The position numbers and the translations under genes are program-made. Below, in pieces: positions 1-1,276 of a stretch of DNA of 1,316 nt. Source of the DNA: Escherichia coli (GTDB taxonomy: Bacteria > Pseudomonadota > Gammaproteobacteria > Enterobacterales > Enterobacteriaceae). Under the pieces are notes generated by a model. The model made no database searches and was not told where the DNA came from. It saw only the letters and a list, made by a program, of their open reading frames with translations. Numbering within the stretch: the first letter of the stretch is position 1; each line of letters opens with the position of its first letter. The stretch lies in the NCBI RefSeq assembly GCF_003334335.1, contig NZ_QOWQ01000111.1. One strand, written 5' to 3'.

Positions 1-26
1 GAACAGGTCGAAGTAATACCCGCACG

Positions 27-305
27 TTACCTCCAGATGCGTTGCTGGAATGTGCGGGACGGACGCGGTGGGCGTTCAGAGTAAGGAAGCCTGACGGAGA
101 TTATCCAGTGACGATAATCGAGGCTGAGGGTTTTCCTAAACTCATACCCACGTCTGCGGTAGTTCTGAATCAGCCATTCGGCCTGTTCTTCAGTGCATGG
201 GGCGTGCTGGAACCAGTCAGATTTGAATGCATGAGAACGCCGCCCGTGCCTGCTGGCAAAGACGGCTGAATTATCAGAATTGTATAATTTGGTATCGTGC
301 GCCAT
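27..305 (-). CDS. Hypothetical protein, 92 aa from the first ATG (MAHDTKLYNSDNSAVFASRHGRRSHAFKSDW...RIWR); function unknown
   Basis: Longest ORF in the region. The ORF track starts it at TTG 386, but that codon lies inside the hok terminator, so ATG 305..303 is preferred. SD is weak (GAGA) and no family was recognised. Confidence 0.4.
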   Translation of the reverse strand: MAHDTKLYNSDNSAVFASRHGRRSHAFKSDWFQHAPCTEEQAEWLIQNYRRRGYEFRKTLSLDYRHWIISVRLPYSERPPRPSRTFQQRIWR

Positions 306-377: not shown

Positions 378-404
378 AAAAAACAAAACCCGCCGAAGCG
401 GGTT
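378..404 (-). terminator. Rho-independent terminator of the hok transcript
   Basis: Minus-strand reading AACCCGC-UUCG-GCGGGUU (404..387), a GC-rich stem with a UUCG tetraloop, followed by UUGUUUUUU (386..378). No T-run follows on the plus strand, so it is unidirectional for the minus strand. Confidence 0.7.
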
Positions 405-407
405 AAG

Positions 408-416
408 TGCGGGTGC
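408..416 (-). promoter_or_regulatory. 3'-UTR block (fbi-like) complementary to the 5' end of the predicted hok mRNA
   Basis: 9-nt perfect complementarity with 792..800, located immediately 5' of the terminator hairpin in the transcript. Consistent with the fold-back-inhibition pairing described for hok mRNAs. Confidence 0.4.
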
Positions 417-472
417 GTTGAGGATGCCTGACTCATCAGAGGTGGCGAGGGATTTCTCCCCCGCCAGGTCTC

Positions 473-628
473 TTACTCCTCAGGTTCGTAAGCTGTGAAG
501 ACAGTGACCTCCGTCTGGCCGGTTCGGATTCGTACCTCGCAGAGGTCTTTCCTCGTTACCAGTGCCGTCACAATGACGGTAATACAGATGACGATCAGGG
601 CGACTAACATCGCCTTTTGCTGCTTCAT
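473..628 (-). CDS. hok: Hok/Gef-family type I toxin, 51 aa (MKQQKAMLVALIVICITVIVTALVTRKDLCEVRIRTGQTEVTVFTAYEPEE)
   Basis: Manual reverse-complement translation from ATG at 628..626 to TAA at 475..473. SD AAGGAG (643..638) lies 9 nt upstream of the ATG. The protein has the Hok-family hallmarks: ~50 aa, N-terminal hydrophobic helix, conserved LCE motif and C-terminal AYE motif. From memory it is closest to the chromosomal E. coli HokD(RelF)/HokC(Gef) subfamily, differing at a few positions. Confidence 0.9.
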   Translation of the reverse strand: MKQQKAMLVALIVICITVIVTALVTRKDLCEVRIRTGQTEVTVFTAYEPEE

Positions 629-685
629 AGCCTGCTTCTCCTTGCCTTTCGGCGTGTAAGAGGCTAACCTACATGTGACTAGCAT
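473..685 (-). CDS. mok: mok-like regulatory reading frame (70 aa), an in-frame N-terminal extension sharing the hok stop codon
   Basis: ORF-track 70-aa frame starting at ATG 685..683, with SD-like GAGG about 8 nt upstream (697..694 on the plus coordinates). The 19-aa extension MLVTCRLASYTPKGKEKQA is translated across the hok SD. This matches, as I recall, the mok/hok arrangement of chromosomal loci such as mokC/hokC, which share a stop codon. Confidence 0.65.
   Translation of the reverse strand: MLVTCRLASYTPKGKEKQAMKQQKAMLVALIVICITVIVTALVTRKDLCEVRIRTGQTEVTVFTAYEPEE
642..670 (+). promoter_or_regulatory. Putative sok promoter (-35 TTGCCT 642..647, 17-bp spacer, -10 TAACCT 665..670)
   Basis: Hexamers read directly from the sequence with canonical 17-bp spacing. 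The promoter sits inside the mok coding region on the opposite strand, as expected for sok. Confidence 0.45.
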
Positions 686-747
686 GAAATTGGCCTCAGA
701 TTAATGTTAAGCGTCCTGCAAGACGCATAATGTTAACTGGGGCTTTT
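677..747 (+). ncRNA. sok: Putative Sok-like antisense RNA (~70 nt) complementary to the mok translation-initiation region
   Basis: Plus-strand promoter-like TTGCCT-N17-TAACCT (642..670) predicts a start near 675..678. The transcript would be antisense to the mok SD/ATG (683..697). It ends in a long imperfect hairpin (693..743) followed by TTTT (744..747). Size and position match the known Sok RNA layout. Ends are approximate. Confidence 0.55.
693..747 (+). terminator. Putative sok RNA terminator hairpin plus U-tract
   Basis: Imperfect inverted repeat 693..715 / 722..743 with core stem gcgtc/gacgc (711..715 / 722..726) and loop ctgcaa, followed by tttt at 744..747. Confidence 0.45.
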
Positions 748-750
748 CTC

Positions 751-785
751 TGTCTGCCTTACGGTGGCATGCCCGAGGCAGACAG
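751..785 (-). promoter_or_regulatory. Structured hok mRNA leader element: 9-bp inverted repeat (751..759 ctgtctgcc / 777..785 ggcagacag) around a 17-nt loop containing the palindrome ggcatgcc
   Basis: Inverted repeat seen directly. It lies in the predicted 5' leader of the hok transcript, where hok mRNAs carry regulatory stems (tac/ucb region). Confidence 0.5.
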
Positions 786-791
786 CCTCAA

Positions 792-800
792 GCACCCGCA
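792..800 (-). promoter_or_regulatory. 5' leader block (tac-like) perfectly complementary to 408..416
   Basis: Plus 792..800 gcacccgca is the exact reverse complement of plus 408..416 tgcgggtgc. At least 792..797 would be transcribed if +1 is near 797. Confidence 0.4.
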
Positions 801-803
801 GCA

Positions 804-831
804 ATTCTACTTAACTCTCGCTTTACCGCAA
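804..831 (-). promoter_or_regulatory. Putative hok/mok mRNA promoter (-35 TTGCGG 831..826, 16-bp spacer, -10 TAGAAT 809..804; predicted +1 near 797)
   Basis: Minus-strand hexamers read from the sequence; TAGAAT is a 5/6 match to TATAAT. The predicted start gives a ~170-nt leader before the hok ATG, in line with known hok mRNAs. The predicted 5' end reads GGGUGCUUGAGGCUGUCUGCC. Confidence 0.4.
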
Positions 832-1013: not shown

Positions 1014-1097
1014 TTACCCACACCGACAAATAACATATACTAAAAAAGCGATAGCCATAGCAACGCCTGTAATTGCAAATGCTTCAGGCCAGATCAT
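1014..1097 (-). CDS. Candidate small hydrophobic protein, 27 aa (MIWPEAFAITGVAMAIAFLVYVICRCG)
   Basis: Textbook RBS: AGGAGG (1110..1105), 7-nt spacer, ATG 1097..1095. The start codon overlaps the stop of the upstream ORF as ATGA, suggesting translational coupling. One predicted transmembrane segment. Below the ORF-track length threshold; found by manual translation. Confidence 0.35.
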   Translation of the reverse strand: MIWPEAFAITGVAMAIAFLVYVICRCG

Positions 1098-1276
1098 TGG
1101 CGCACCTCCTGCGGCGGTTCTGGTAACGGCATCCAGTCGGTTACATTGCGGCTCTGTGTTTCGAAAAATTCATCACCATTACGGACTACATCAAAAAACT
1201 CACCGTCTCGATATTGCGCATAAAGAACGAATGCGCCATCACATAAAATAATTACGTGCTGACCATCATCCGGCAT
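1094..1276 (-). CDS. Hypothetical protein, C-terminal 60 aa from the first Met; the frame stays open to the right window edge, so the gene may be 5'-truncated
   Basis: ORF-track frame with stop TGA at 1096..1094. Translation upstream of ATG 1276 remains open through 1315 (…PVTPDGWISCSER-MPDDGQ…). Contains a duplicated acidic motif, DGEFFDVV / NGDEFFET. No family recognised. Confidence 0.4.
   Translation of the reverse strand: MPDDGQHVIILCDGAFVLYAQYRDGEFFDVVRNGDEFFETQSRNVTDWMPLPEPPQEVRQ

Follow-up and report, generated by a model that had tools for sequence, protein, structure and literature searches.

The minus strand of the window analysed here, i.e. the whole 1316-nt stretch of Escherichia coli DNA from contig NZ_QOWQ01000111.1, very probably carries a hok/mok/sok type I toxin-antitoxin (TA) locus of a lambdoid prophage, and two complementary 9-nt blocks that had been singled out in a preliminary description of the sequence overlap the tac and fbi elements of this locus, through which the two ends of the hok mRNA pair with each other. 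The conserved helix formed by these elements contains only six of the nine pairs of the blocks (792-797 with 411-416), from which it is offset by three bases. The tac/fbi interpretation given in the preliminary description is correct, and the mechanism itself is already known as a textbook feature of the hok family. The fold-back of the mRNA is supported by the identity of the locus, the predicted fold of the transcript, the conserved position of the partner site, a consensus structure computed with RNAalifold, and the structural switch that is predicted when fbi is removed.

The reference for this type of control is the hok gene of plasmid R1. In the R1 model, the pairing of tac with fbi closes the full-length RNA, while the ucb element sequesters the Shine-Dalgarno (SD) region of the overlapping mok frame (PMC9841398). 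Slow trimming from the 3' end then removes fbi, upon which tac pairs with ucb and the mok SD with the dcb element, so that translation and binding of the antisense RNA Sok become possible; in addition, a metastable 5' hairpin blocks premature translation during transcription (PMC9841398).

Identity and setting of the locus

Rfam family RF01794, which is named "sok" and models the hok leader together with the Sok region, matches positions 797..623 of the minus strand with 117.6 bits (gathering score 59); the model is covered completely (positions 1-157), and its position 1 falls on G797. The hok toxin gene (473..628, minus strand), taken from the listing of open reading frames (ORFs), encodes a protein of 51 amino acids (aa) that begins with MKQQKAML, matches the Pfam model HOK_GEF (PF01848) over the full model span (E = 1.3e-22), and is 86% identical to HokW of phage 933W; in E. 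coli genomes the PGAP annotation names it hokD. The mok reading frame (473..685, minus strand; 70 codons) contains hok in frame and ends at the common stop codon, and the homologous ORF in 933W is annotated as mokW. A Hok/Gef ORF of ~50 aa, an overlapping mok frame and a structured 5' leader with a cis-antisense Sok region are thus all present, and by all the computationally testable defining features the locus is an ordinary hok/sok family member.

In the 933W annotation, mokW, hokW and sokW stand at the homologous place, and the position of sokW was transferred to the plus strand of the window, which puts the Sok antisense RNA at 677..750, with approximate ends. Sok so predicted is complementary to nt ~48-121 of the hok mRNA, i.e. 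to ucb, the mok SD and the mok AUG. The plus strand at 676-760 is also predicted to fold into a long hairpin that is followed by UUUUCUCU, a U tract, and a -10-like hexamer TAACCT can be read at 664-669 (plus strand). The match of the plus strand to the Rfam sok model scored 18 bits and was treated as not significant. As experiments have established hokW-sokW as a type I TA system, in which HokW is toxic and is neutralised by sokW (PMC8621323), Hok encoded in the window may by analogy be toxic, and may be neutralised by Sok.

An E. coli chromosome matches the window with 99.9% identity, and in that chromosome the window lies within a lambdoid prophage that has replication genes (P, DnaT-like) on one side and RusA/DUF1133 on the other; its identity to the Sakai prophage Sp6 is 96%. 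The locus is near-identical in hundreds of genomes.

Extent and conservation of the tac/fbi helix

The two blocks form an exact inverted repeat, with arms of 9 nt at 408-416 (TGCGGGTGC) and 792-800 (GCACCCGCA) that are 100% complementary and have 375 nt between them; a repeat search thus recovered both the coordinates and the sequence given for them earlier. The bare 9-mer complementarity is not above chance. Dinucleotide shuffles of the 1316-nt window hold 3.6 exact 9-mer inverted pairs on average and at least one in 93% of the cases, and even among shuffles of the 423-nt transcript region 22% hold at least one. It is by its location and its real length that the pairing goes beyond chance: the duplex of the first 12 nt of the mRNA with the 30 nt before the terminator has an energy of -21.1 kcal/mol, compared with -8.9 +/- 2.6 kcal/mol in the null, and is matched by 0.03% of the shuffles.

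The end-to-end helix consists of 12 pairs and one bulge. The tac element, the 5'-terminal 12 nt of the mRNA (GGGUGCUUGAGG, 786..797, minus strand), pairs with the fbi element (CCUCAA-C-GCACCC, 411..423, minus strand; mRNA nt 375-387), the segment with which the 5' end forms its strongest duplex, in such a way that 797-792 face 411-416, C417 is bulged out, and 791-786 face 418-423. When the transcript 797..378 was folded, as had been suggested in the preliminary description, its ends were found to be paired: in the minimum free energy (MFE) structure (-175.8 kcal/mol, z = -6.6), nt 1-12 and nt 375-387 close the whole molecule, with base-pair probabilities of 0.97-1.0 for the 12 tac/fbi pairs.

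The hok mRNA would start at G797, the first G of tac, as suggested by the gap of 6 nt to the -10 hexamer together with the numbering used for R1. The putative hok/mok promoter was read from the sequence as a -10 hexamer TAGAAT (804..809, minus strand) preceded by a weak -35-like TTGCGG (831-826, minus strand). A promoter consensus scan did not flag the hok promoter, TAGAAT scoring 8 of 12, and the promoter call therefore rests on sequence reading and homology. A -10-like hexamer is found exactly 6 nt before GGG/GGC in every lineage examined, and the R1 numbering (G4, C5 and T6 of GGCGCU; PMC9841398) sets +1 on the first G of GGCGC with the same spacing. Hence the three additional nucleotides of the 5' block, UGC at 798..800 (minus strand), lie between the -10 hexamer and +1, where they are probably not transcribed, and their pairs with 408-410 fall outside the very transcript, 797..378, that the preliminary description had proposed. 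Since 798-800 are probably upstream of the start site, the 9-mer does not define the 5' boundary, contrary to the earlier suggestion that it supported it; the boundary is set by the -10 spacing and homology. The placement at the 3' end holds, with 3 nt between the block and the terminator hairpin. The intrinsic terminator detected by a terminator scan (378..404, minus strand) consists of a 7-bp hairpin at 404-387 and a U tract at 386-378; it is kept in most hokW-type loci and absent from 933W.

Comparison of homologous loci places the edge of the conserved helix at the same position. Across 73 distinct close loci, tac is nearly invariant (GGGTGCTTGAGG, with three variant copies), and similarity breaks down upstream of 797, where the triplet at 798-800 varies (TGC, AGC, CGC, GGC, GCC, AAT, TTC, TGT) without a matching change at 408-410. 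Pairs were counted in 99 loci, which comprise 32 distinct rows of tac and fbi of this tac type. The core (797-792 with 411-416) is paired in 99.0% of the cells and the second half (791-786 with 418-423) in 97.4%, the corresponding figure for the extra pairs (798-800 with 408-410) being 63.5%. The changes that occur in the helix mostly keep pairing, e.g. C-to-U opposite G; the second half has several G-U wobbles, and its outermost pair shows a G-C to A-U double change in three distinct rows, two of the Kluyvera type and one from K-12 hokB. The GCA that follows fbi (408..410, minus strand), i.e. the 3' half of the extra pairs, is specific to the hokW-type lineage; in the hokC, hokB, hokA, pndA, Kluyvera, Pseudocitrobacter, Pantoea and Citrobacter lineages fbi is followed by a U/A-rich sequence. 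Conservation and covariation, which the preliminary description had put forward as a second check, thus hold for the 12-pair helix and fail for the pairs between 798-800 and 408-410.

As the 80 viral loci are too close (94-100% protein identity) for covariation of the core, more distant subfamilies were added. For wider sampling, a stretch of DNA from the region of the mok start served as an anchor, which is neutral with respect to tac and fbi and returned 20 stretches, one of them a chance match in Spirosoma (L095) that was ignored; the window itself does not match this anchor, from which it differs by 1 nt in length. Loci cut by an insertion sequence (IS) on the 3' side (L003, L008, L089) or the 5' side (L091, L092, L115), and L114, which has no leader, were not used for both ends, and L120, an IncF Hok/Gef locus, was dropped since the ORF rule gave no ORF.

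In a test across the family, the 5' ends of 15 loci were set independently by Rfam, and the partner of the first 12 nt was sought up to 150 nt after the stop codon. These loci include the hokW type, hokC, hokB, hokE, hokA, R1 hok and the pndA type, the remaining ones coming from Atlantibacter, Leclercia, Citrobacter, Pantoea, Pseudocitrobacter and an Enterobacteriaceae genome. In every one of the 15 loci, the best partner falls at stop +48 to +59, with energies of -15 to -23 kcal/mol that are mostly in the extreme tail of composition shuffles. The core covaries among subfamilies, being GGGUGC/GCACCC in hokW, hokC, hokB, hokA and others, GGGCGC/GCGCCC in the pndA type, and GGCGC/GCGCC in R1, Atlantibacter and Leclercia; in Citrobacter braakii, a register shift removes the bulge (GGGUGCUUUGGG / CCUCAAAGCACCC). 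Given the 15 full-length hok mRNAs without any hint, RNAalifold predicts the end-to-end helix, in which pair 4-427 is U-A in 11 sequences, C-G in 4 and broken in none.

It could be argued that the whole 9-mer is functional in this prophage lineage, transcription starting 1-3 nt upstream of G797 and the helix growing to 13-15 bp to form a tighter lock. UGC before tac and GCA after fbi do co-occur in 56 of the 99 loci, the addition of 798-800 (with the start at 800) takes the duplex from -21.1 to -27.3 kcal/mol, and in hokE, too, the bases at -1 and -2 are complementary. Nevertheless, we consider this very unlikely in view of the exact 6-nt spacing, which is the same in every lineage and in R1, the variation of the upstream triplet (AGC, CGC, GGC, GCC, AAT, TTC or TGT) left uncompensated at 408-410, and the presence of the extra pairs in 63.5% of the cells, as opposed to 97-99% for the true helix. 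Moreover, GC at -2/-1 is also kept in the hokC, Kluyvera and Pseudocitrobacter loci, where a U/A-rich sequence follows fbi, and its conservation is therefore not explained by pairing. Slightly less credible still is the proposal that hokW-type prophages have a longer fold-back lock than the other hok genes, with up to three extra pairs and about -27 kcal/mol if the start were at 799/800; were it true, the longer lock would delay activation, and could tune the release of Hok to prophage induction.

The predicted RNA switch

Thermodynamic prediction alone reproduces every state of the R1 switch in models of this locus. In folds of the nascent RNA, nt 3-13 of the first 28-50 nt pair with nt 19-29 (769..779, minus strand), the tac partner in the metastable hairpin, with -17 to -22 kcal/mol, and this hairpin is lost at a length of 55-60 nt. 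In the full-length fold, tac:fbi pairing is accompanied by that of nt 55-61 of ucb, the anti-SD element (AAGCCCCAG, 737..745, minus strand; mRNA nt 53-61), with nt 99-105 of the mok SD region (CUGAGGCC, 692..699, minus strand; mRNA nt 99-106). When fbi is deleted (the RNA ending at 432) or constrained to be unpaired, nt 1-8 of tac pair with nt 53-59 of ucb, and nt 101-105 of the mok SD leave ucb for nt 134-138 of dcb (UUAGCCUC, 660..667, minus strand; mRNA nt 131-138), a pairing that is seen only in the truncated or fbi-blocked fold; blocking fbi raises the MFE from -175.8 to -163.1 kcal/mol. A hairpin in the 3' untranslated region (UTR), GGCGGGGGAGAAAUCCCUCGCC at 444..465 (minus strand), is seen in the folds and conserved in the family alignment, and by analogy with R1 may be the hairpin that is expected to protect the 3' end of the truncated mRNA (PMC9841398). 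Both ucb and dcb are conserved in the 15-member family alignment, and in the window these two elements, the hok and mok ORFs, the promoter and the terminator are all intact.

By homology with hok of plasmid R1, we propose that the locus works as follows. During transcription, tac would be held in the short-lived 5' hairpin with nt 19-29. In the finished mRNA of ~415-420 nt, it would form with fbi a helix of 12 bp and one bulge, at about -21 kcal/mol, which would leave ucb free to sequester the mok SD, so that neither mok nor hok would be translated and Sok would be unable to bind. Slow 3' exonucleolytic trimming would subsequently remove the terminator and fbi and halt near the hairpin at 465-444, whereupon tac:ucb and mok SD:dcb pairing would make the RNA translatable as well as open to Sok, and the toxin would be made only where Sok has decayed.

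Several points weigh against this reading or temper it. The hok protein scores 46.8 bits against the NCBIfam Hok subfamily model, below the curated cut-off of 73, although the Pfam match is clear. The tac and fbi segments used in the pair count were chosen for their motif homology, a choice biased towards the core helix; the core is essentially invariant in the close hokW-type group, which is uninformative as it could reflect shared descent; and the covariation comes from few positions and from comparisons across subfamilies. While computation on the window and its homologues gave the identity of the locus, the pairings along with how they are conserved and covary, and the alternative folds, the start at G797, the mRNA ends, 3' processing, translational control and toxicity are carried over to this locus by analogy. 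Finally, the authors of the hokW study saw smaller RNAs and were unsure whether these correspond to the truncated form known from R1 (PMC8621323).

The helix might alternatively serve mainly to protect the mRNA ends and give the message a long life, rather than to block translation, as the pairing buries both termini and the R1 interaction is said to stabilise the full-length mRNA strongly in its closed form (PMC9841398). Such a role is compatible with translational control and does not exclude it, and the exchange of partners predicted for ucb, which depends on fbi and involves tac and the mok SD, is the translational switch itself, with ucb and dcb both conserved; that protection is the main function seems to us quite improbable. 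It is very improbable that the 9-nt complementarity is a functionless chance repeat, or that the locus is a decaying relic whose pairing is kept only by descent. Although 93% of the shuffled windows hold exact 9-mer inverted pairs, many hok loci have been inactivated by IS elements or mutation, and close relatives show no variation in the core, the null falls far short of the end-to-end duplex, 15 diverged family members have this duplex at one and the same place, compensatory changes are present, and the ORFs, promoter, terminator, ucb and dcb are intact in a locus found nearly unchanged in hundreds of genomes.

Related loci, neighbouring features and significance

With hok/mok/sok (parB) of R1, the locus in the window shares the order of a 5' tac, the metastable hairpin, ucb, the mok SD, dcb and overlapping mok and hok frames, followed in the 3' part by the 3'-UTR hairpin and by fbi just before the terminator hairpin, with Sok lying over the mok start region; the predicted structural switch is also the same. 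The two differ in the core, which is GGGUGC/GCACCC here and GGCGC/GCGCC in R1, in the second half of the helix, which is continuous with a single bulged C here whereas it has an internal mismatch in R1, and in location, a lambdoid prophage as opposed to a plasmid. The Hok protein is itself only distantly related to that of R1, HokW and R1 Hok sharing 44% identity (PMC8621323).

The closest characterised relative is hokW-sokW of the Stx2 phages 933W and Sakai Sp5, which likewise belongs to a lambdoid-phage context. The window and 933W are 90% identical in DNA over 410 nt, with tac and fbi identical, but 933W hokW diverges right after GCACCCGCGCUUU and is without the terminator hairpin at 404-387, so the 3' end of the 933W hokW mRNA must differ; Sakai Sp6 is a better match to the window than 933W. 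The chromosomal loci hokC (gef)/sokC, hokA, hokB and hokE have the same tac, GGGUGC(U/C)UGA(G/A)(G/A), and the same position of fbi, HokC being the K-12 toxin most similar to that of the window. However, fbi is followed there by U/A-rich sequence instead of GCA, and therefore the three extra base pairs of the 9-mer cannot form. In K-12, insertions of IS186 or IS150 disrupt these copies. For chromosomal hokC the fbi element has already been described, as stated in a passage of PMC3562002 that cites Pedersen and Gerdes 1999. The pnd locus of R483-type IncI plasmids has the same architecture, with tac GGGCGCUUGAGG and with fbi CCUCAUUGCGCCC at stop +50; its core pair 4 is C-G instead of the U-A found here, a compensatory change that supports the helix.

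Several observations were made on other hok loci. IS elements have repeatedly parted hok from the elements at its ends, at the 3' side in L003, L089 and L008 and at the 5' side in L091, L092 and L115. In K-12 hokC and hokE, the 3' UTR is split by IS186 within the G/C-rich hairpin or directly behind it, i.e. upstream of the place that fbi has in intact loci, and an IncY plasmid copy has the same 3' junction sequence, which we take to be IS186; disruption of the gef fbi by IS186 is noted in a passage of the literature (PMC3562002). K-12 hokA and two hok loci on plasmids have lost the leader to IS150 or ISKpn8. Two further observations concern L096 (9438-10341), L100, L103 (3441-4388) and L117 (301-919): Pseudocitrobacter and an Enterobacteriaceae genome have hok loci in tandem, with ~500 nt from one to the next, and E. 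coli hokE has, ~350 nt downstream of where its leader match ends, a second match to the hok leader (Rfam sok, 63.9 bits). Uncompensated changes in tac or fbi were seen in L040 (the equivalent of G796 changed to U, plus changes in fbi) and L086 (GCAGCC), and the Salmonella locus L007 has a degraded hok frame, yet keeps an fbi-like CCUCAAUGUACCC and a terminator; these three are likely decaying copies.

The window has some further features. Just upstream of the hok promoter region, at 844-865, stands a perfect 22-bp palindrome, CGATATGGGAATTCCCATATCG, which is exact in 22 of the 121 loci and hence part of one particular upstream flank rather than of the hok module. On the same strand upstream of hok are short hydrophobic ORFs of 27 aa and 51 aa, the latter including a 34-aa hypothetical protein in the PGAP annotation, and a fragment of a frameshifted DUF551 gene; the upstream ORFs span 874-1029, 1014-1097 and 1094-1276 (minus strand), and none of the three had an NCBIfam match. 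The heptamer GTGCGGG occurs at 19-25 (minus strand), 52-58 (plus strand) and 407-413 (plus strand), i.e. three times compared with 0.17 expected, a count reached by 0 of 200 shuffles; two of the copies flank the start of the DUF968 gene as an inverted repeat and the third overlaps the 3' edge of fbi, this being a post hoc observation. A match to the Rfam model of isrK, a Salmonella small RNA, at 383-464 (minus strand; 27.1 bits, gathering score 50, E = 0.0016) spans the hok 3'-UTR hairpin, fbi and the terminator; it was treated as not significant, and probably reflects the generic resemblance of a hairpin followed by a terminator.

A general caution can be drawn from this case, namely that where the eye picks out a perfect k-mer complement, it can overlap a real helix and still fail to show where that helix begins and ends. 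What is left as novelty is small, i.e. a possible extension of the helix by 2-3 bp in the hokW-type lineage that is absent from the other lineages. To our knowledge, the mRNA ends and the 3' processing have never been mapped for any prophage hok. Exact coordinates are now given for each element of the switch, and their practical use is modest: the segments 411-423 and 786-797 are precise targets for asking whether the activated form of the R1 type is what the smaller hokW RNAs on Northern blots represent. In the main, the analysis is a confirmation that a prophage-borne hok locus keeps the complete R1 switch, with its tac, fbi, ucb, dcb and metastable hairpin.

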